This document shows positions 2,335-64,000 of a stretch of DNA of 64,000 nucleotides, in pieces. The stretch's first letter is position 1; each line of letters starts with the position of its first letter. The stretch comes from an uncultured Candidatus Saccharibacteria bacterium. Its GTDB lineage: Bacteria > Patescibacteriota > Minisyncoccia > Portnoybacterales > UBA2143. The stretch spans positions 432 through 64,431 of the forward strand of contig CAZQUN010000004.1 of assembly GCA_964596615.1 (NCBI GenBank). The letters are read 5' to 3'. A model generated the notes under the pieces. The model did no database searches and had not been told where the DNA came from. It worked only from the letters and a program-made list of their open reading frames with translations. The translations under genes were made by a program, and so were the position numbers.

Positions 2335-2363
2335 TTGACAGATTTTACAGAATAAAATAAGAT
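2335..2363 (+). promoter_or_regulatory. Sigma-70-like promoter upstream of rplJ (TTGACA-N17-TAAGAT)
   Basis: A consensus -35 hexamer TTGACA sits at 2335-2340, separated by 17 nt from the -10-like hexamer TAAGAT. Confidence 0.4.
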
Positions 2364-2373
2364 TTATAGAGCT

Positions 2374-2433
2374 GTAGACAATAGGTGGCTTTAGCGGAAA
2401 TCCTATCGAGGCGAGTGCCTTTTTATTGTCTAC
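2374..2433 (+). promoter_or_regulatory. Possible rplJ-rplL (L10) leader RNA structure
   Basis: A perfect 10-bp inverted repeat (GTAGACAATA ... TATTGTCTAC) encloses a 40-nt GC-richer segment in the 5' UTR of rplJ. This is the position of the autoregulatory L10 leader in many bacteria. Confidence 0.35.
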
Positions 2434-2458
2434 ATATTTGTAGGCATTTTTTAATAGC

Positions 2459-2977
2459 ATGATTACTAAAGAAAAGAAAAAAGAAATAATTCAAGATTTA
2501 ATTGATAAACTTTCCCGCCAGAAATCAGTTGTCTTTTTTGACTATACTGGCCTGAAAGTCAACCAAAGCCAGGAATTAAGAAGCAAATTAAGACAAGAAG
2601 AAATCGATTGCCAGATTAGCAAAAAGACCCTAATTGACTTGGCCTTGGAAAAAGCCGGATTAAAAGATATCAAAGTCAAAGAATTAGCTGGTCAGATTGG
2701 TTTAGTTTTTGGATACAAAGACGAAATCTTACCAGCCAAAATCCTATATGATTTTTCAAAAGAAAATAAGGACCTTAAAATTATTTCCGGTTTAATTGAT
2801 GGTCAGTTTTTAGGAAACGAAGCTGTTCTTGAATTAGCCAAATTACCTTCCAAACAAGAATTGCTTTCAAAACTGATTGGCAGCATTTCATCTCCAGTGC
2901 TCGGATTACATAATACCTTACAAGGCAACCTGTCTAAATTAATTAATATATTTAAAAACCTAAAGTCAGAGGAATAA
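2459..2977 (+). CDS. rplJ: 50S ribosomal protein L10
   Basis: 172 aa. The N-terminus KEKKKEIIQDLIDKLSRQKSVVFFDYTGLKVNQSQELRSKLR is typical of L10, and the gene is followed by rplL. Confidence 0.85.
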   Translation: MITKEKKKEIIQDLIDKLSRQKSVVFFDYTGLKVNQSQELRSKLRQEEIDCQISKKTLIDLALEKAGLKDIKVKELAGQIGLVFGYKDEILPAKILYDFSKENKDLKIISGLIDGQFLGNEAVLELAKLPSKQELLSKLIGSISSPVLGLHNTLQGNLSKLINIFKNLKSEE

Positions 2978-45303: not shown

Positions 45304-46245
45304 ATGGAGAAAAGCAAAAAGCCACTAACTCAACATTTAACTGATTTTTTGGATTGGCTTGATATTGAAAAAGGTTTATCAAATAAATCCCAGGAAAACT
45401 ATTCCCGCTTCCTCAAAAAGTTTGTTGGTTGGTTAGAAGAAAATAACCTAAAGGATTTAAAACCCCATGACCTCTCCCCCGGCCATATTTGGGAATATCG
45501 GGTCTACCTTTCCAGGCATTCAAAAAAACCATTAAAAAAATCTACCCAAAACTATTACTTAATCGCTTTGAGGTCGTTTTTAAACTACTTTGCCGACCGG
45601 GATATCATTTCCCTTCCGGCAGAAAAAATTAAATTATCTAAAGACAAGGGCGAAAAGAAAATTCATTTTTTAACCATAGAACAGGTTGAAAAATTACTCT
45701 CTACTCCTGATACTAATAAAAAGAACGGTCTTCGTGACCGGGCTATCCTGGAAAGCTTGTTTTCAACCGGTTTAAGAATCGCTGAATTAGTTTCTCTGAA
45801 TAGGGATCAGATTCGTATCATTCCCCTAGCCAAAGATTTAGAAATTGGCATTGTTGGCAAAGGAAATCGTCCCAGAACCGTCTATTTCTCCGAGAGAGCC
45901 ATATACTGGCTTGATAAGTATCTTAAAACAAGAAAAGACAATGATAAGGCTCTTTTTGTTAACTATCAAGGTAGAAAAGATGCCCCGAAACGGTTAACAG
46001 ACCGGTCCATTGAAAGAGGTCTTAAAAGATACGCTCTTTTAGCTGGATTGCCTGGAAATACGACTCCCCATACTATTCGTCATTCATTTGCGACTGATCT
46101 TCTTTCCCAGGGCGTTGATTTAAGATTAATCCAGGAATTTTTAGGACACAGCAATATTGCTACGACCCAGATATATGCTCATGTAACAAGTAAAAAACTT
46201 AGAGATGTCCATCGTAAATTTCACGGCGGAAAGGATTTAAAATGA
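45304..46245 (+). CDS. xerC: Tyrosine recombinase XerC/XerD family
   Basis: Has the catalytic region HTIRHSFATDLL ... LGHSNIATTQIYAHV (R-H-R-Y). Confidence 0.85.
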   Translation: MEKSKKPLTQHLTDFLDWLDIEKGLSNKSQENYSRFLKKFVGWLEENNLKDLKPHDLSPGHIWEYRVYLSRHSKKPLKKSTQNYYLIALRSFLNYFADRDIISLPAEKIKLSKDKGEKKIHFLTIEQVEKLLSTPDTNKKNGLRDRAILESLFSTGLRIAELVSLNRDQIRIIPLAKDLEIGIVGKGNRPRTVYFSERAIYWLDKYLKTRKDNDKALFVNYQGRKDAPKRLTDRSIERGLKRYALLAGLPGNTTPHTIRHSFATDLLSQGVDLRLIQEFLGHSNIATTQIYAHVTSKKLRDVHRKFHGGKDLK

Positions 46246-47378
46246 GAATCTCCTATTCCGGGCTGGATACCTTTTCTACCTGTCCGGCAAAATATAAGTT
46301 TCAATATGTTGAACGAATTAAATTTCCTAAGATAAAGGAAGCGGTTTTTGGAACCTTGATTCACGATTGTTTAAAGATGTTCCACGAGCCCGGTCGGCTC
46401 GCTCCCCCAACCGAAGACGAACTTTTACAATACTTTACTAACAAATGGAATCCGGACATCTATTCCGACCAACAGGAGGAAGCTTTTGCTTTTCATCAGG
46501 GAATAGATATTCTTAAAAAATATTTTCTTCAAAACCAAGGACTTGAATTTAATATTATAAACCTGGAAGCGCCTTTTGGAGCGCTCATTTCAGACGGGAA
46601 AGAAATTAATCAAATCACCGGTCGGATTGACCGGATTGATAAACTTCCGGATGGAAGCTTTGAGGTTATTGATTACAAGACAAGCAAAAAAATGCCTGCT
46701 CAGGAGACAGTTGATAAAAACTTCCAACTTTCCGTCTATTATCTCGGTTTAACCAATCGCTGGCCCTCAATTCAGGAACAAAACCGACCAGTTAAATTAT
46801 CCCTCTATTTTTTAAGACATGGCGAGAAACTTTCTGCGACAAGAAACAGCAGTCAAATTAAAGAAACCCAGGAAAGAATCCTGGATTTAATCAGTCAAAT
46901 AAAGATTAGTAATTTTGAACCAAAAGCCAACCCATTATGCAATTGGTGCCAGTATCAGCCCCATTGCCCCTTATACAAACATAAATTTATTACTCCTGAC
47001 TCCCCTGCTCCAGGTGAAAAGAAAATTAAAAAAGTTATCAAAGAATTTTTTGAAATAAAAGAAAAACAAAACCAGGATACAAAAAGAATCGGAGAACTAA
47101 AGGAATTAATTAACCAATACTGTGATGAAAATGATTTAGAACGGGTCTTTGCTGATGAAGGTCATATCACTCGCCTGTCCCAGCAGAGGTTTAGTTATAA
47201 TTTTAATCAGGTTAAAAAGGTTTTAGAGCCAATTGGCAAATGGAATCAGATTTTAACCATAGATACAGCTAAATTCAAAAAAGTGATTGATTCTCTTCCT
47301 TATCAAGAAAAGAAGGAAATAGAAAAGACAAAAACTCTCCAAAGAGAGTTTAAAGTTATTTCCGGGAAGAAACATTAA
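46242..47378 (+). CDS. PD-(D/E)XK nuclease with a C-terminal Cys cluster (Cas4/RecB-nuclease-domain-like)
   Basis: Has the motif EVIDYKTSK and the cysteines CNWCQYQPHCP, plus an N-terminal CP. Overlaps xerC by 4 nt. Confidence 0.5.
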   Translation: MRISYSGLDTFSTCPAKYKFQYVERIKFPKIKEAVFGTLIHDCLKMFHEPGRLAPPTEDELLQYFTNKWNPDIYSDQQEEAFAFHQGIDILKKYFLQNQGLEFNIINLEAPFGALISDGKEINQITGRIDRIDKLPDGSFEVIDYKTSKKMPAQETVDKNFQLSVYYLGLTNRWPSIQEQNRPVKLSLYFLRHGEKLSATRNSSQIKETQERILDLISQIKISNFEPKANPLCNWCQYQPHCPLYKHKFITPDSPAPGEKKIKKVIKEFFEIKEKQNQDTKRIGELKELINQYCDENDLERVFADEGHITRLSQQRFSYNFNQVKKVLEPIGKWNQILTIDTAKFKKVIDSLPYQEKKEIEKTKTLQREFKVISGKKH

Positions 47379-57412: not shown

Positions 57413-57802
57413 TCACTGACAGTCCTTTGGGCAATTGCATTTGTTTTCCCATTCTTCACAATCTCCATTTCCACAATCAGAACAAATTACAGGAACTCCG
57501 GGCATAACTATACAATTCTCATCGTATGATTTTGGATATTGCCCTCCAGCAATTTTAATCAATCCTTGACAACACTCAGATGTCATCTGCTCGTTGTATT
57601 CTGGGGAAATAGCCTCAACATCAGAGAGACCTTCTTTTATACATCTTATGGGTGGCTTCTCAACCCAGTCAGGAGAAGTCGGCTTTTCTAAGTACCAATA
57701 AGCCCCTCCAGCAAGGATTATTAAAAGAATGATTGAAATAATAATTTTTTTGTTCATATTAATCTCACATATTCCCACACTTTTGTTCTTCTTAAGGAAC
57801 AA
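57413..57802 (-). CDS. Small signal-anchored Cys-rich protein sharing the C-terminal CxDCGxGxC ... NCPxDC module
   Basis: 129 aa with an N-terminal TM helix. The C-terminus is CSDCGNGDCEEWENKCNCPKDCQ. Confidence 0.45.
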   Translation of the reverse strand: MFLKKNKSVGICEINMNKKIIISIILLIILAGGAYWYLEKPTSPDWVEKPPIRCIKEGLSDVEAISPEYNEQMTSECCQGLIKIAGGQYPKSYDENCIVMPGVPVICSDCGNGDCEEWENKCNCPKDCQ

Positions 57803-57814
57803 AATGATTGCAAT

Positions 57815-58006
57815 TTATTTTATTCTACGATAAGCATCAATGATTAGAATAATTGCAGACAATAGAAACCCAAATCCCACACCGGGTATAAATCTTCCTA
57901 CGCCAGGTGTTAATAAACAAATTATTAAACTAACTGCTCCTGGAATAGCAAAGACTAGAGCAGTTGAAAGTCTATTTTTAACTATCTTTTTTGTTGTTTG
58001 ATCCAT
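57815..58006 (-). CDS. Hypothetical small membrane protein
   Basis: 63 aa with 2 TM helices. Confidence 0.25.
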   Translation of the reverse strand: MDQTTKKIVKNRLSTALVFAIPGAVSLIICLLTPGVGRFIPGVGFGFLLSAIILIIDAYRRIK

Positions 58007-58021
58007 ATTATTTTTTACTTT

Positions 58022-60757
58022 TTAATTTATATTATCTCCACATCTTGATTCTTCAACAGGTTGGATAACCCCATCATTATTGAGGTCGCAATCTAATTGC
58101 CCATTAATGCAATCCTCCGAACAATTCTGAGAAGTTTCGGGACCTTGGCAGACGCCGTCACCACATCCGTTCTGTGGGAGAGGTTGAGGGGTCTCTCCAT
58201 CACAATCTTGTGGACAGTTAGCTGATGTCTCGGGTCCCTGGCATGTCCCGTCGCCGCATTTGCCATTGCCATTTGGTTGTGGCTGTGGTGGTTGAAATGA
58301 TTCTTCTTGACAGTCCTCTGGACAAACCAGGTGTGTTTCAGACCCAGAGCATACCCCGTCTCCACATTCAGTAATTGCAATGTCAGTCATTTCTGGAAGA
58401 TTATCAAAGATATCTCCTGATGAAACAGGCGGTTCATATCTGCCAATATAGTAATCATAAAGGTCAAATTCATAAGGCGGTGGAGCATCAGCATAAGTTA
58501 GAAATAGATAGAAGGTATTGTCTAGTAATAAAAGCGCAGGATTTGAATCATGACCACTTGTGGCAGCGCCACCACCGATATTACGTGGTTTTACCCATTG
58601 ATTATCCTCTAAAAAGGTGTAATAAATATCCCAATCACCGGCAAACTCAAGGTCAGAATACGATGATCCAGCGTTGTTTGCCCCGTTGTAGAAGATTACT
58701 TTTCCATCCGATGAAATCTCTGTATTATCTTCAAATGTACCAATTGTATTATATTTGAAGAATTTGGCTTCATCAAAGACAAACTGGCTGCCATCATAAG
58801 TGAAAACATTAAACCAAATATTTTCATCCTTTGGTTCTAAGTAGGCCTCATATTGAGGATAAGCATTTTTATGAGCTTGATTGGATGTTAGCGGCTGCTG
58901 CTGCTTCCATCCTACAGAATAAAAAATTATTCCTTTGCCTTTAGCATCATCAAAATAAACAGTTGGTCCGATTTCACCATCTGCAGTATTCACTTTTTGA
59001 CCTAAATTCAAAGGCTGACCAAAAGTACCATCTGAATTTCTAAACGAAACATATAAATCAGTTGAACCGTATGCTTGTTCCGGATAAAAACTTCCAGTAG
59101 AAGCAAGAAACATTACTTCTTTTCCGTATAATTTTGTGACAAAATTCCCCACATCTTCTGATTTTGAAGTGTCGATTTCATTGCCATTATTATCTTTAAA
59201 TATTACACGACTGGGCGCACTCCAGTTGTCTTCAATAGAATCTCTTGAGGCAGTGTATATAGATTTAGTTCCCCCCTGGTCTTCGTAACGGCTGTAGAAA
59301 TAAAGCTCTAATCCATCTCTAGAAATACCCGGAGCTTTTTGGGTCCTATCGTCAGTGTTAATATTTACATATTTTTCATCAGAGATGCTTTGAGAGTCAT
59401 TTAATTCAGGGAAAATAACAGACCCTGATGTGGGTTCTCCGGAAGTTGATTCTTCTGTTATGCCGTCATGGCCCTTTATATAATAAACTTCTCGGTTTCC
59501 ATCTTTGTCGTCTTCAAAAATAAGATGGATTATTCCTTCTCCATCAACTGCAGCGTGGGGCGAAGTCAAAAGATTCTTCTGATTTAGATTAACCAAAGTA
59601 ACTATTTCGCTCCAATTCTGGCCTTTGTCCAAGGAATAACGATAAAGAATTTTATTATTGCTGACTTCATCATTCATCCAAAAGGCATGCAGGCCTGTCT
59701 CTTGGCCATAAACAATAATCGGCTGACTTGAATTATTATCCCCTTCGCTCAATTTCATCTGGTTTCCCCAGCTCTTGCCATTATCGCTAGAATTCAAATA
59801 GTGAACCTCTAAGTCGGTTTTATACTCTTTGCCGACTAATGTTTTTGTCCCAATAAGTAATATAGTATGTAATCTCCCTTCTTCATCAATAGTAATAGTT
59901 GGCAGGCCGTTTGCCTGGCTGGTTGATTCGTTTAAGATCTTGACTGGATTAGTCCAGCTCAGACCATAATCAGCCGAGTTAATATAATAGGCATCACCAT
60001 CGCCTTCGCAGAAATAGTATGCTATATGAAGCGTCAGATTTTCATCAATGAGCAAATTTGGTCTTTCCGGCATCTGAGAATCACAGGTGACAATGGCCTT
60101 AGTTTCTTTCCATGAGTTGCCCTTATCAGATGAATGGCTGAAATATATGCTCCTAGCATCCTGTTCCTGCCAGGAAATATAGACATTATCTCCGTCAGCA
60201 GCTATATCTGCTGCCCAAGATTTACCCGAGGTGTTAGAAATTCTTACTGGCTCTTCCCAGGTCTCTCCCCCATCAGTAGAGCGAATATAATAATTTTCCT
60301 GATTTCCATCTTTATCTTCGTTCCAGGCAAGATGGACGTAATTATCTGAAACAGCTATTGAAGGCACCCATGATATCCCGGAGTTATTGGTTATTCTGAT
60401 GTCTTCTGACCAAGTATCCCCCAAATCATTTGAATATTTAAAATAGATCTCTGGATTACCGTCTCTACCATCACTAAAAGCGAGATAGATATTATTGTCT
60501 TCAATGGCTAGGTTATGGACAAAGTTAGGCCCCAGGGCTGAAACAGCACTATCTTGAGTTAACCTATTGGCTTCTGACCAGCCACCGCTTAAACCTTCTT
60601 TTTCCCGAAGAAAAAAGTACCAGATAGTTCCTGCTAAAAGAGCTAAAACTAAAGCGCTGGTTGCTAGAATTAATAATTCCCTGCCTTTCCCGCCAAAAAT
60701 ACCAGGCGCATTTATATTATTTATATTTTGTTGTATGTTTTGTTCTTCTTGGTTCAT
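58022..60757 (-). CDS. Signal-anchored surface protein with a BNR/Asp-box beta-propeller (sialidase-like fold) and three C-terminal Cys-rich modules
   Basis: 911 aa with an N-terminal TM helix and at least 6 Asp-box repeats (SNDLGDTW, STDGGETW, SSDKGNSW, SADYGLSW, SSDNGKSW, SLDKGQNW). The C-terminus has three copies of CGDGxCxGxETxxxCPxDC. Confidence 0.7.
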   Translation of the reverse strand: MNQEEQNIQQNINNINAPGIFGGKGRELLILATSALVLALLAGTIWYFFLREKEGLSGGWSEANRLTQDSAVSALGPNFVHNLAIEDNNIYLAFSDGRDGNPEIYFKYSNDLGDTWSEDIRITNNSGISWVPSIAVSDNYVHLAWNEDKDGNQENYYIRSTDGGETWEEPVRISNTSGKSWAADIAADGDNVYISWQEQDARSIYFSHSSDKGNSWKETKAIVTCDSQMPERPNLLIDENLTLHIAYYFCEGDGDAYYINSADYGLSWTNPVKILNESTSQANGLPTITIDEEGRLHTILLIGTKTLVGKEYKTDLEVHYLNSSDNGKSWGNQMKLSEGDNNSSQPIIVYGQETGLHAFWMNDEVSNNKILYRYSLDKGQNWSEIVTLVNLNQKNLLTSPHAAVDGEGIIHLIFEDDKDGNREVYYIKGHDGITEESTSGEPTSGSVIFPELNDSQSISDEKYVNINTDDRTQKAPGISRDGLELYFYSRYEDQGGTKSIYTASRDSIEDNWSAPSRVIFKDNNGNEIDTSKSEDVGNFVTKLYGKEVMFLASTGSFYPEQAYGSTDLYVSFRNSDGTFGQPLNLGQKVNTADGEIGPTVYFDDAKGKGIIFYSVGWKQQQPLTSNQAHKNAYPQYEAYLEPKDENIWFNVFTYDGSQFVFDEAKFFKYNTIGTFEDNTEISSDGKVIFYNGANNAGSSYSDLEFAGDWDIYYTFLEDNQWVKPRNIGGGAATSGHDSNPALLLLDNTFYLFLTYADAPPPYEFDLYDYYIGRYEPPVSSGDIFDNLPEMTDIAITECGDGVCSGSETHLVCPEDCQEESFQPPQPQPNGNGKCGDGTCQGPETSANCPQDCDGETPQPLPQNGCGDGVCQGPETSQNCSEDCINGQLDCDLNNDGVIQPVEESRCGDNIN
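60601..60757 (-). repeat. About 150-bp direct repeat, copy 1, encoding the shared N-terminal anchor of the two large surface proteins (copy 2 at 62671-62827)
   Basis: The two DNA segments are near-identical over about 150 bp on the same strand, with only scattered substitutions. Confidence 0.7.
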
Positions 60758-60788
60758 TTTTTTAATATTAATTATTTTAGTTTTTTTG

Positions 60789-61019
60789 TTATTTAAGATT
60801 GTATTTTCTCCTGCGATATAATTCTAAAATAGTCACTATTATTGATACACTAATCCAGGTCACAAAAAGCCAAACGGCCTTATCCATAGTCATTAACTCT
60901 TTACCCTCCTTTATATTCCACAAAACTGCGGCAAGAAAAAAACCTATACCAAACCCCAAAATGGGACCCGCTATTGAGCCTTTCTTTGTTGTCCAATTTT
61001 CTTTTAGTTTGTCAAACAT
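60789..61019 (-). CDS. Hypothetical small membrane protein
   Basis: 76 aa with 2 TM helices. Confidence 0.25.
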   Translation of the reverse strand: MFDKLKENWTTKKGSIAGPILGFGIGFFLAAVLWNIKEGKELMTMDKAVWLFVTWISVSIIVTILELYRRRKYNLK

Positions 61020-61066
61020 ATTATTTCACTTTCTTAATTTATATTTATAATTCGGCCCCTATATTC

Positions 61067-62827
61067 TCATTGACAATCCGCTGGGCATTTAGTTGCATCT
61101 TCGGGTCCAGCACAGACTCCATCACCACATTCTCCTCCTGGAAGCTGTGGAGGCGAAGGGGCAGCTCCACTACAATCCTTTGGACAATTCTGTGAAGTTT
61201 CGGGGCCTTGGCATGTTCCGTCGCCGCATTTACCATCTGGTTGTGGAGTTGGTCCTTCTTGGTCAATAATTGCCTGACAATCACTTGGAGTACAAAATAC
61301 TACTGGTCTTTGGTCAAGAGTAATCGATGATGGATTAAGAGTATCTGTGTCGCCTGTTTCAAGAAATACCCTCTGAATATTTTGTTCTGAGAAAAAGTTT
61401 GATAAATCTAGGTCCGTATCCGTGGTTTTATCAGAAAAAGCCAAGATAAACTGATAATCGCCCGACAACATTGAATAGGCACTAATCCCCTCTTTTGCAG
61501 AAATCTCTTCCTTGACAACACTATTTCTTAAATATTTATTAACCCATTCATAATAAGGATAAGCATTGTAGTCCGTATACTCTAACGGATAATTAAAAGA
61601 GGAAACGCCTGGATTCTCTACCTCCCATTCTTCATATTCTTCCAAGACGCCTCTGTAGTTTGAGAATTTAGCAATTCCTTTACTGACAAAGTTATCTGAA
61701 AGCCATTGGAGCATATCCTGTAATCTTTGTCTATTGCCTGTGTCCTTCGCTTCCCAATCATGGACATGCGAACCCCAGCCATAAGCCCAGACTTTATCAT
61801 CTTTGCTAAGCATCCAATTTAAGTATAATTCCAAAAACATTGCTTTTTGATGGTTGATGCCGACATCCAAACCTTCTATGCCAAGGTGTTTTGTAAGGCA
61901 TTCTTCTATACCGTTGGTCCAGGTGCACATGCCGTTTTCAGTGGTATAAATGCCGTATTGTGGTATGTTCAATATTTTAGCATTAAGATCTTCGCTGGTT
62001 CTTGAAGCACCAGGCCTAAAAGGATTAAACGGAGGGTGATTAAAGTATCTTACAAGCTCCTTTTCCTCTCCTCCTTCTTTCATTAAAAAGCCTAATTCTT
62101 CGATGAGTTCGTGTTTTTCAACAGTATCTTTTGGAAGATCAGAACCGTAAGCTAACATTGCATTCATGATTCCTGATTCTCCTGTGATTCCTAACGCCCG
62201 CTCAATAAGTTGCTTGACAAAATCAATATTTTCTTCAAGAAGTTGTTTTATTTCTTCTGAAGACATACGATAAGTTTCTGCCTGAGCCCATTTATTCAAC
62301 GAGCCAAGATATTCATAATTGTGAGAATGAAATCCAATTAAACCTCCACTTTGATAAAGCTCATTTATAATAGAAAAACACTTATTGTTGTGGTTGACAT
62401 CATCAAGACATAACTCTGCCCACGGTGCTACACTTAGGAATGATATTTTTGCTCCATATTGATCTGTTAAGTCCAAGAGCCATTCAAGATCATCTAGCTG
62501 AGATTGAAATATTCGTCTGTTCATTTCAAGACTAGGAGAGCCTCCAAACGCTTCGGTAAAGAAATCTGCGTGCGAGTGTATATCAAAAACTATGTTTATT
62601 TGACGTTTAGTGAGGCTTTCTTCAGATTCCCCGCTACAACTGGCGCCATTTTGATCTTGACAAGTTTCTTCCCGAAGAAAAAAGTACCAGATAGTTCCTG
62701 CCAAAAGAGCTAAAACTAAAGCGCTGGCTGCTAGAATTAATAATTCCCTGCCTTTTCCGCCAAAGATACCAGGCGTATTTGTGTTATTTATATCCTGTTG
62801 TTGTATGTTTTGTTGTTCTTGGAACAT
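61067..62827 (-). CDS. Signal-anchored surface protein with a putative metal-dependent carbohydrate esterase/deacetylase-like domain and two C-terminal Cys-rich modules
   Basis: 586 aa. Its first ~60 aa are nearly identical to the adjacent 911-aa protein. It carries FDIHSHADFF and GFHSHNYEY His motifs, and the C-terminus reads CGDGTCQGPETSQNCPKDC ... CGDGVCAGPEDATKCPADCQ. Confidence 0.5.
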   Translation of the reverse strand: MFQEQQNIQQQDINNTNTPGIFGGKGRELLILAASALVLALLAGTIWYFFLREETCQDQNGASCSGESEESLTKRQINIVFDIHSHADFFTEAFGGSPSLEMNRRIFQSQLDDLEWLLDLTDQYGAKISFLSVAPWAELCLDDVNHNNKCFSIINELYQSGGLIGFHSHNYEYLGSLNKWAQAETYRMSSEEIKQLLEENIDFVKQLIERALGITGESGIMNAMLAYGSDLPKDTVEKHELIEELGFLMKEGGEEKELVRYFNHPPFNPFRPGASRTSEDLNAKILNIPQYGIYTTENGMCTWTNGIEECLTKHLGIEGLDVGINHQKAMFLELYLNWMLSKDDKVWAYGWGSHVHDWEAKDTGNRQRLQDMLQWLSDNFVSKGIAKFSNYRGVLEEYEEWEVENPGVSSFNYPLEYTDYNAYPYYEWVNKYLRNSVVKEEISAKEGISAYSMLSGDYQFILAFSDKTTDTDLDLSNFFSEQNIQRVFLETGDTDTLNPSSITLDQRPVVFCTPSDCQAIIDQEGPTPQPDGKCGDGTCQGPETSQNCPKDCSGAAPSPPQLPGGECGDGVCAGPEDATKCPADCQ

Positions 62828-62864: not shown

Positions 62865-63254
62865 TTACCTTTTAATAAGTTTGATGGATACAACAACGAT
62901 TATTAACGATGACAATATCCAGACCAATTTTTCTACGGTATCTAAATTCAACAAATTTAAATAAAAAACCACAAGGTCAGAAAGGATCACGGTCCCCGGT
63001 AATAATAAGGCAATTTTTTCAATCTTTTTCACAAGTATAATAATCAAGATTATTATACTAAGTGGTACCATCAGTGCCGTGTTAGTTGTTGCATAAATAA
63101 ATATAATTATCATGCCAAGTCCGCCTGATGGCTCAAAACCCATCAATCCTATTAGAGTAGAAAAAATCCAAAGCAAAGATACCACGAGCATTAAAATTGG
63201 ATACCATTTAAAAATTCTTTTTTCTTCGTTCATATTATTTTCACCTCCTTTCAT
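62865..63254 (-). CDS. Hypothetical membrane protein
   Basis: 129 aa with 4 TM helices. Confidence 0.3.
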   Translation of the reverse strand: MKGGENNMNEEKRIFKWYPILMLVVSLLWIFSTLIGLMGFEPSGGLGMIIIFIYATTNTALMVPLSIIILIIILVKKIEKIALLLPGTVILSDLVVFYLNLLNLDTVEKLVWILSSLIIVVVSIKLIKR

Positions 63255-63294: not shown

Positions 63295-63936
63295 TCATTC
63301 CTCCTCAATAAAAATAGGGTTTGGACTAAGAATTAAAGTCACTTCCCCATTATTGACATTTTTAGTCTCGGTCTCAAATGCGGTATTATAATCAGTCACC
63401 TCTTCTCCTGTTTCGTATTTTGGCACCGCCCCTGCGATTTTTACTTGTTTTGAATTTAGGTCTGAAATTGTGGCTTGTGTTTCTTGGGAATTATCATTCC
63501 AGGCAACCCAGATTAATTTACCGTCAACCGTGAATTTATATAAAAAGGTGCCATTTTCGTTCTGTTTGATTGTTTTTGTTTTATCCTTGTCAAAGCCTTC
63601 AAGTTTTTCAATTATTTTTTTTGTTGAATAATATGCAAGTTTTTTCGAGTCAAGACCATTATTAAATTCTGGACTATAAACCAACCCATCATATAATCTA
63701 TATTCTTGCTCCCATTTTCTTGGCATATCTTTCTGCATTATCTGGCCATTATTGTGTATTTGGTCATAGCCAAGAGCTGATCCTACAATATATTTTTTGA
63801 TTAGATCGATTGCTTGTTCTTTTTCTGTTGCGCTAAACCCTTCTCCTCCACAAGTTTTTATTTCTGTAAACCAGCCCACATCATTATATCCAAACTTATT
63901 CAAAACATTTTTGAAATAATTCGTCCATTCAATCAT
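63295..63936 (-). CDS. Hypothetical protein
   Basis: 213 aa with no recognisable motifs. Confidence 0.3.
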   Translation of the reverse strand: MIEWTNYFKNVLNKFGYNDVGWFTEIKTCGGEGFSATEKEQAIDLIKKYIVGSALGYDQIHNNGQIMQKDMPRKWEQEYRLYDGLVYSPEFNNGLDSKKLAYYSTKKIIEKLEGFDKDKTKTIKQNENGTFLYKFTVDGKLIWVAWNDNSQETQATISDLNSKQVKIAGAVPKYETGEEVTDYNTAFETETKNVNNGEVTLILSPNPIFIEEE

Positions 63937-64000
63937 ATCAAGATACCTGTCTTTTTTTCCAGATGAGGATGGATCACCAGCACCTAAAAAATGTGGATCG

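Follow-up and report, generated by a model that had tools for sequence, protein, structure and literature searches.

We examined a 64,000-nucleotide stretch of DNA (hereafter, the window) from an uncultured Candidatus Saccharibacteria bacterium (GenBank assembly GCA_964596615.1, contig CAZQUN010000004.1, positions 432 to 64,431 of the forward strand), and describe here a cluster of minus-strand genes near its end, several products of which share a short, cysteine-rich module. Coordinates are those of the window and features lie on the minus strand unless stated otherwise. Three module-bearing open reading frames (ORFs) were confirmed, at 57413–57802 (129 amino acids (aa)), 58022–60757 (911 aa) and 61067–62827 (586 aa). 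An initial annotation, made from the sequence alone, described them as three consecutive genes; the ORF list bears out the coordinates, but the genes are not strictly consecutive, as a 63-aa ORF (57815–58006) lies between the 911-aa and 129-aa genes. The cluster runs on upstream of 62827, first with an ORF at 62865–63254 and then with a frame that extends from 63295 to past position 64000. Along the minus strand, the order is a glycosidase-like gene, a gene for a polytopic membrane protein, the 586-aa gene, the 911-aa gene, the gene for the 63-aa peptide and a gene for a Cys-rich mini-protein.

In this cluster, the module comprises 19 residues with four cysteines, C-G-[DN]-G-x-C-x3-E-x4-C-x2-D-C. 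Searching the six-frame translation of all 64 kb with the expression C-[GS]-[DN]-G-x-C-x(2-4)-E-x(2-6)-C-x(1-3)-D-C returned exactly six matches, all in the three genes. Three are in the 911-aa protein (911-a, CGDGVCSGSETHLVCPEDC, 58310–58366; 911-b, CGDGTCQGPETSANCPQDC, 58202–58258; and 911-c, CGDGVCQGPETSQNCSEDC, 58109–58165), two are in the 586-aa protein (586-a, CGDGTCQGPETSQNCPKDC, 61172–61228; and 586-b, CGDGVCAGPEDATKCPADC, 61073–61129, which is C-terminal) and one, a six-Cys variant, is in the 129-aa ORF (CGNGDCEEWENKCNCPKDC, 57419–57475). These are the one to three copies per protein that had been reported at first. Eight of the 21 positions in the module alignment are invariant (four Cys, two Gly, one Glu and one Asp). 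As just 0.77% of residues in the window's long ORFs are Cys, recurrence of the module by chance can be excluded.

Anchors and the shared 5′ cassette

Each of the three proteins has one N-terminal hydrophobic segment (Kyte–Doolittle score >1.6), at aa 27–50 in the 911-aa protein, aa 28–51 in the 586-aa protein and approximately aa 19–38 in the small Cys-rich protein, in agreement with the N-terminal transmembrane anchors that had been assigned to them. In the two large proteins, a polar tail of 26–27 residues that ends in K-G-R is followed by a hydrophobic helix of 23 residues; this layout would be more in keeping with a type II signal anchor than with a signal peptide that is cleaved off.

Although unrelated over the rest of their length, the 911- and 586-aa genes open with 53–54 codons that share about 93% DNA identity. 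This 5′ cassette, recognized by DNA identity and hydropathy, spans 60599–60757 in the 911-aa gene (aa 1–53) and 62666–62827 in the 586-aa gene (aa 1–54) and encodes a Q/N-rich cytoplasmic tail and the transmembrane helix. Positions 62666–62827 and 60599–60734 align with 93% identity and sharp boundaries, and similarity is lost abruptly upstream of the ATG and past the residues ...FFLRE. By comparison, the modules of the cluster are only 67–81% identical to each other. No third copy of the cassette was found in the window or among the database matches. The near-identity of the two copies points to a recent gene conversion or cassette exchange. We considered but discarded the idea that the cassette is pilin-like, because the position of its Glu does not match the prepilin consensus.

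The 129-aa ORF of the small Cys-rich gene starts with TTG; an alternative ATG at 57757, from which the product would be 114 aa in length (MNKKIII...), is at least as plausible. The product has a predicted anchor or signal peptide and a Cys-rich ectodomain that carries the single module. Its anchor, MNKKIIISIILLIILAGGAYWYLEKP, resembles the anchor MNAKIITIIIGILLIAGAIGGIWWYLQES of a 54%-identical orthologue of the 911-aa protein (P0002) more closely than the anchor of the 911-aa protein itself does, which hints that anchors may have been swapped within the family. The neighbouring 63-aa ORF, with two predicted transmembrane segments, matches no family and was called as a gene by an independent gene caller on two Logan contigs that are identical to the window (L005 and L006).

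Domains of the large proteins and the upstream gene

Behind its signal anchor, the 911-aa protein carries a BNR propeller, a second predicted propeller, the three modules and an EF-hand-like loop. The first of these (aa ~58–440; 59438–60586) matches the Pfam family BNR_2 in three stretches and well above the gathering threshold (63.3 bits against a cut-off of 31.4; E = 3.1e-17). It contains exactly six Asp boxes (S-x-D-x-G-x-T-W), at aa 109, 160, 209, 261, 323 and 375 (spacing of 50–60 aa), and a degenerate seventh closing unit, and its blades align one by one with those of 11 trimmed BNR-propeller homologues and of the full-length orthologue P0002. A BNR/Asp-box beta-propeller, as originally predicted, is thus present. 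The accompanying description of the protein as sialidase-like is not supported beyond the fold. In its six S-x-D-x-G-x-x-W boxes and its BNR_2 score the protein resembles GH33 sialidases and other BNR_2 propellers, but it lacks the FRIP/Arg-triad motif of the former: no [FYW]R[IVL]P sequence, the pattern used for the (F/Y)RIP motif of GH33, occurs anywhere in its 911 residues. No solved sialidase was found among its relatives, and the sole sequence match in the Protein Data Bank (PDB) is an uncharacterised BNR/Asp-box repeat protein (E = 0.078). The nearest homologues are propellers with very regular repeats, some of which carry a PF18962 domain, which we take to be a T9SS sorting domain.

The second domain (aa ~470–790; 58388–59350) has a partial match to the NCBIfam family CHU_0125, a PD40-containing family (E = 7.6e-11). 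PD40 itself scores just under its cut-off in P0002 (19.4 bits against 20.9; E = 1e-3) and was undetected in the window protein. In an AlphaFold2 (AF2) model that covers aa 441–911, the domain is all-beta with pLDDT values of 50–89, and the top 50 Foldseek matches to it are all propellers (E = 8e-6 to 2e-4; TM-scores of 0.2–0.5); a PDB search with its sequence returned nothing significant. The model and the family matches indicate a beta-propeller fold with PD40/TolB-like repeats. The resulting tandem propeller looks non-catalytic and is probably a ligand or glycan binder; because the sialidase motifs are absent, glycan binding is suggested by analogy only.

After the third module, at the very end of the protein, the Cys-flanked sequence CDLNNDGVIQPVEESRC (aa 890–906; 58040–58090) shows the DxNxDGxIxxxE spacing of EF-hand and dockerin calcium loops, and is conserved in P0002 as CDLNNDGIIQPIEEQMC. 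No Pfam model recognizes the loop. Its agreement with the consensus would nevertheless make it a better candidate for a calcium site than the Cys module. At locus L003, the gene upstream of the 911-aa orthologue is unrelated to the family of the 586-aa protein.

The 586-aa protein combines a signal anchor with a predicted catalytic core (aa ~75–425; 61553–62605), an all-beta C-terminal domain (aa ~436–522; 61262–61522) and the two modules. It belongs to a rare family: a search of 5.8 billion proteins recovered six homologues (44–49% identity) and a metagenome scan added eleven loci, giving about 17 relatives. The DIHSHADFF and GFHSHNYEY motifs that were picked out in the initial annotation were both confirmed, with His residues that do not vary among seven family members. 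In the alignment of these seven, the invariant positions are [DE]81-x2-H84-S-H86-x-D88, H167-S-H169-N, H326-Q-K and H354-V-H356-D357.

The only Pfam family that recurs is Polysacc_deac_1, which matches 5 of the 7 members, always below threshold (for the 586-aa protein, aa 117–201, 20.9 bits against 23.1; E = 3.8e-4). A profile of the family aligned with the CE4 esterase CtCE4 of Clostridium thermocellum (PDB 2C71) at E = 0.26, over a stretch that begins at the helix following strand 1 and ends at the ‘G-x-H-S’ motif. These two matches and the family alignment are the evidence for the core, which resembles CE4/NodB deacetylases, including membrane-anchored enzymes of the PgdA type, in several respects. 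Strands and helices alternate, which we read as a beta/alpha barrel; an acidic residue ends strand 1; a His motif follows the ‘G-x-H-S’ strand; a late ‘H-D’ is present; and the stretch from motif 1 to motif 2 can be aligned. The core differs from these enzymes in motif 1 ([FL][DE]xHSHxD as opposed to TFDDG) and motif 2 (HSHN as opposed to H(S/T)xxH), and the protein as a whole differs in its added C-terminal beta-sandwich, in the rarity of its family and in matching under the curated threshold throughout. At the site of motif 1, VF[DE]81-I-H84-S-H86-x-D88 lies at the end of a predicted strand (77–84), with the acidic residue kept and the second Asp replaced. The site of motif 2 reads G-x-H167-S-H169-N; H167 lines up with the CE4 His of 2C71, and H169 stands at +2, not +4.

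An AF2 model built from the seven-sequence alignment has a core of alternating strands and helices; its most confident part is the beta-sandwich (pLDDT of 74–90, strands at 436–512). The best Foldseek matches by TM-score normalized to the target, obtained on a low-confidence model, are the putative deacetylases 3RXZ (0.47) and 3QBU (0.41), and matches to amylase-type enzymes probably belong to the beta-sandwich region. A PDB search with the sequence found nothing significant. The metal-dependent carbohydrate esterase first proposed is thus weakly supported, and we regard the 586-aa protein, with moderate confidence, as a divergent NodB-type metal hydrolase—a candidate for CE4 rather than an established member.

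Apart from the homologue at L007/L011 (described below), the members of the family start, where readable, with a signal peptide and end in a double repeat of another kind. Their genomic context, where visible, is archaeal, as genes for L39e and L31e of the ribosome lie close by; one member carries the name Nitrosopelagicus. In the thaumarchaeal-type members (L012–L018 and P0055–P0058), a double repeat of ~35 aa, W-x-K-E-x-A-x-x-W-A-x-D-x-I-x-N-x-x-F-V-x-A-I-x-x-L-I...II, replaces the Cys modules. Given this replacement, the C-terminal tail looks like a lineage-specific, swappable unit.

The frame at 63295–64000 is the 3′ part of the glycosidase-like gene; it remains open to base 64000 and is cut by the edge of the window. 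The fragment keeps WFTE, a motif of the nucleophile type, and the C-terminal beta-sandwich. With 38% identity (blastp, 9e-40), its product matches that of the gene directly upstream of the 586-aa homologue at two other loci, L007 (3–1304) and L011 (3859–5475). The L011 gene encodes a transmembrane anchor, one module, a domain with FENEP and WMTENG motifs and a beta-sandwich that matches the Pfam family Cyc-maltodext_C at threshold, as does the L007 protein. In the TIM barrel of clan GH-A, NEP on strand 4 is the acid/base motif and TE on strand 7 contains the nucleophile Glu; judged by these motifs, the upstream gene may encode a glycosidase of this clan. In L011, the glycosidase-like gene is followed by the 586-aa homologue, with two C-terminal modules, and then by a gene that opens with a transmembrane anchor and a juxtamembrane module. 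Conservation of a tandem set of anchored, module-tagged, putative glycan enzymes thus extends to a second organism, with flexible placement of the module. This recurrence, with anchors and modules, strengthens the early description of the locus as a cluster of glycan-acting surface enzymes. In the window, the two genes of the pair are separated by the ORF at 62865–63254, which encodes a strongly hydrophobic, polytopic membrane protein of 129 aa without a Pfam or NCBIfam match.

Distribution and structure of the Cys module

To survey the module, we compared a 21-column profile of 23 module copies with 1.84 billion representative proteins. At E ≤ 1e-3 it matched 4,024 proteins, each standing for a cluster at 50% identity; of these, 1,221 passed E ≤ 1e-10 and 99 passed E ≤ 1e-30. 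As a single copy cannot be significant in a library of that size, the matches are multi-copy proteins and 4,024 is a lower bound. For the most part, they appear to be secreted. The top 150 have a median of 8 copies, arranged in arrays with linkers of mostly 1–7 residues, and arrays reach about 25 copies per protein; the consensus of this set is xCG[DN]GxCxxGE[TSND]xx[STN]CPxDC. An N-terminal hydrophobic segment is present in 126 of these 150 proteins, the amino-acid compositions of which range from those of low-GC to those of high-GC organisms. The six-Cys variant, with its additional Cys at module position 13 as in the small protein of the cluster, accounts for 16% of the surveyed modules.

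Carriers that could be named include Anaerolineales lipoproteins, Deltaproteobacteria, a proteobacterial protein that also has thrombospondin type 3 (TSP3) repeats (locus L002), Heimdallarchaeota and a mini-protein of Candidatus Portnoybacteria. The two arrays with NCBI names are a ‘hypothetical protein’ and an ‘S8 family serine peptidase’. All matches to a two-module profile were ≤100 aa in length, and a scan of GTDB genomes gave module-level matches only. Among 88 module-rich proteins, the module falls under no model of Pfam or NCBIfam, and a literature search with the motif strings found nothing relevant. The module is therefore a very widespread, uncatalogued extracytoplasmic repeat of Bacteria and Archaea. 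It had been put forward as a shared anchoring or adhesion module of a plausible host-interaction locus; it is indeed shared (six copies in the cluster) and marks proteins that lie outside the cytoplasm, but, with at least 4,024 clusters carrying it, it is not special to episymbionts. The Anaerolineales contig CAZVPR010000012.1 (L001, 3014–7433) shows the same sharing of the module between neighbouring genes: three adjacent lipoprotein genes with unrelated bodies each carry one module just after the lipobox. One of these three modules is the variant CGDKVC.

Comparison with known repeats places the module closest to the cysteine-rich domain of the receptor kinase RET, as far as its core is concerned. 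Several small prokaryotic module proteins match RET_CRD (PF22540) at positions ~47–72 (~41–72 at the widest), two of them above the Pfam cut-off, and the modules of the window themselves gave no RET_CRD match. No other curated model showed similarity to the module. RET was also the only PDB entry found with the module profile (zebrafish, 7AML; E = 0.043), and human RET aligns, with identical spacing, with a 21-residue module variant of L011. The two share the sub-motif C-x-D-G-x-C-x3-E-x(4-6)-C-P-x-D-C and an extracellular location. They differ in that only ~25 of the 103 RET_CRD positions are matched; in addition, RET has a single motif inside a 16-Cys, membrane-adjacent domain of a metazoan receptor kinase, whereas the module is a free-standing repeat with Pro-rich linkers. 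The Myxococcus repeat (DUF4215/TIGR02232) is likewise a short, disulfide-rich unit that starts with CG[DN]G, contains a Glu and occurs in tandem in secreted bacterial proteins, but it has a Cys spacing of its own (CGNGxxxxGExCDDGN...); its models matched no window protein and 1 of the 88 module-rich proteins.

A disulfide bond links C570 and C585 of RET (PMC13225206), and these residues correspond to C2 and C4 of the module. With that pair assigned, C1 and C3 would be left to form the second bond, so the module is probably a two-disulfide knot (C1–C3 and C2–C4). In the AF2 model of the 911-aa protein, modules 911-b and 911-c fall in blocks with pLDDT values of 75–86 and 70–80, respectively (66–86 overall), with a helical turn at CPxDC. 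The disulfides may staple the CGDGxC loop onto this turn, and the Pro-rich linkers would join the modules to the enzymes. The module is most likely a stable, protease-resistant structural or interaction unit. As the anchor is the N-terminal transmembrane helix, the module is most likely not a membrane anchor, and it may be placed either beside the membrane or at the distal C terminus.

Genomic context and function of the cluster

Downstream of the cluster and on the same strand lie dnaG, rpoD, genes for a Wzy_C protein, a GT2 glycosyltransferase, a LytR-CpsA-Psr protein, a second GT2 and an S41 protease, and the gene for ribosomal protein L9. Two Logan assemblies from independent sequencing runs match the window, cluster included, at 100% identity along 8.8 and 7.1 kb. 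A close relative (L004, 1–10000, compared with the window from 57394) is 84–88% identical in the nucleotide sequences of dnaG-rpoD and of the envelope genes, and synteny ends exactly at the start codon of dnaG. Upstream of dnaG, the relative has NUDIX, GIY-YIG, M48, LemA and GroES/EL genes in place of the cluster, and no Cys module occurs anywhere in the 21.8 kb of it that we examined. Between its rpoD and Wzy_C genes, the relative has two additional genes, YfhO and one that encodes 702 aa. Searches of 5.8 billion proteins returned no close homologue of the 911-aa or the 586-aa protein. Its absence next to dnaG in the relative and the lack of close homologues of the large proteins identify the cluster as accessory. 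Its base composition shows no anomaly, and scans for promoters and terminators stayed at background level.

We favour, with reasonable though far from complete confidence, a reading in which an operon-like, accessory, strain- or species-specific cluster encodes membrane-anchored, outward-facing proteins that process or bind glycans, with the Cys unit as a generic two-disulfide module that is not the anchor and with cassette exchange as the process that built the family. The proteins would most likely be held in the cytoplasmic membrane with their bulk outside the cytoplasm, where they would act on surface glycans by binding and processing them. The family may have been assembled by shuffling of cassettes between adjacent genes, as suggested by the levels of identity of the 5′ anchor and the modules.

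Several points weigh against this reading. The BNR propeller is without sialidase motifs. Membership of the 586-aa protein in CE4 falls below the Pfam threshold, the protein has neither TFDDG nor H-x3-H in canonical form, its AF2 model is poor (mean pLDDT of 55) and the Foldseek TM-scores are low. The glycosidase-like call is made from short motifs and a beta-sandwich, and the barrel has no Pfam, NCBIfam or PDB match.

The cluster might instead serve the envelope of the cell itself, with the CE4-like and glycosidase-like enzymes remodelling its own peptidoglycan or wall glycopolymer and the propeller acting as a TolB-like envelope factor. Peptidoglycan deacetylases of Gram-positive bacteria (PgdA-type) are membrane-anchored with the type II topology that is predicted here. 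The position of the cluster is also suggestive, directly upstream of dnaG-rpoD and, beyond these, of the Wzy_C, GT2 and LytR-CpsA-Psr genes; the homologous cluster in L011 directly follows ftsW-murG. We nonetheless consider maintenance of the own envelope unlikely: the close relative keeps its envelope genes without the cluster, which must therefore be dispensable for envelope synthesis, and most members of the 586-aa family are archaeal and thus from organisms without peptidoglycan.

Somewhat more doubtful still is a host-attachment locus of an episymbiont, in which the Cys module would serve to attach glycan enzymes to the host surface, as an adhesin or anchoring tag. The predicted surface exposure of the proteins, the absence of the locus from the close relative and the annotation of one module mini-protein as Candidatus Portnoybacteria are compatible with such a role. 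There is also a precedent among bacteria of the candidate phyla radiation (CPR), as Peribacteria encode large Cys-rich extracellular proteins that average ~1,655 aa and ~7% Cys and weakly resemble the Myxococcus repeat (Anantharaman et al. 2016, PMC4736985). Like the products of the cluster, these proteins are exported, clustered and strain-variable, and a role at the surface or in attachment has been proposed for them (PMC4736985). Unlike them, the proteins described here are much smaller and enzyme-like, with Cys confined to short terminal modules. The module is, moreover, equally common in lineages that are not episymbiotic (Anaerolineales, Deltaproteobacteria and high-GC lipoproteins), and the core of the 586-aa family also occurs in marine Thaumarchaeota, with a different C-terminal tail.

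We give little credence to a further, more specific proposal, that the module is truly homologous to the RET core and works as a dockerin-like interaction tag that gathers strain-specific, membrane-anchored glycan proteins into a surface assembly or onto the glycans of a partner. Least probable, and largely refuted at the sequence level, is the original suggestion, drawn from the NCPxDC core, of a calcium-binding, TSP3-like repeat (PF02412): the two have in common an extracellular location, the N-C-P and DC letters, Asp-rich segments and conserved acidic residues (D4, E11 and D19), but TSP_3 matched none of the window modules at E ≤ 10 and only 1 of the 88 module-rich proteins, the DxDxDGxxDxxD consensus of the calcium loops is absent from all six copies, modules precede genuine D-rich TSP3 repeats in L002 as adjacent but distinct units, and CDLNNDGVIQPVEESRC, elsewhere in the 911-aa protein, is the better calcium candidate.

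The favoured reading of an accessory, glycan-directed surface cluster draws on kinds of components that are already known, namely a BNR propeller, a NodB-like hydrolase, a small disulfide repeat and strain-variable, Cys-rich exported proteins of CPR bacteria (PMC4736985), and our findings overturn nothing in current understanding. What is new is modest: an abundant, uncurated repeat with a RET-like motif, a rare enzyme family of bacteria and Thaumarchaeota, and surface proteins that appear to be built from cassettes. A dedicated model of the module would annotate thousands of secreted proteins and flag their extracytoplasmic location. The CE4-like family, with its invariant HSHxD and HSHN motifs, its occurrence in two bacterial lineages and marine Thaumarchaeota and its glycosidase-like partner gene, is a target for new carbohydrate-active activity. 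The locus also illustrates how such surface proteins may be built, with unrelated ectodomains set between a near-identical 5′ anchor cassette and common 3′ modules.

Elsewhere in the window, we found no rRNA genes in the 64 kb. A Phage_integrase tyrosine recombinase (45304–46245, plus strand) is followed by a PD-(D/E)XK nuclease (46242–47378, plus strand) about 10 kb from the cluster. An Rfam ribosomal protein L10 leader at 2354–2462 (plus strand; score of 44.6 against a gathering score of 44) belongs to the housekeeping context.

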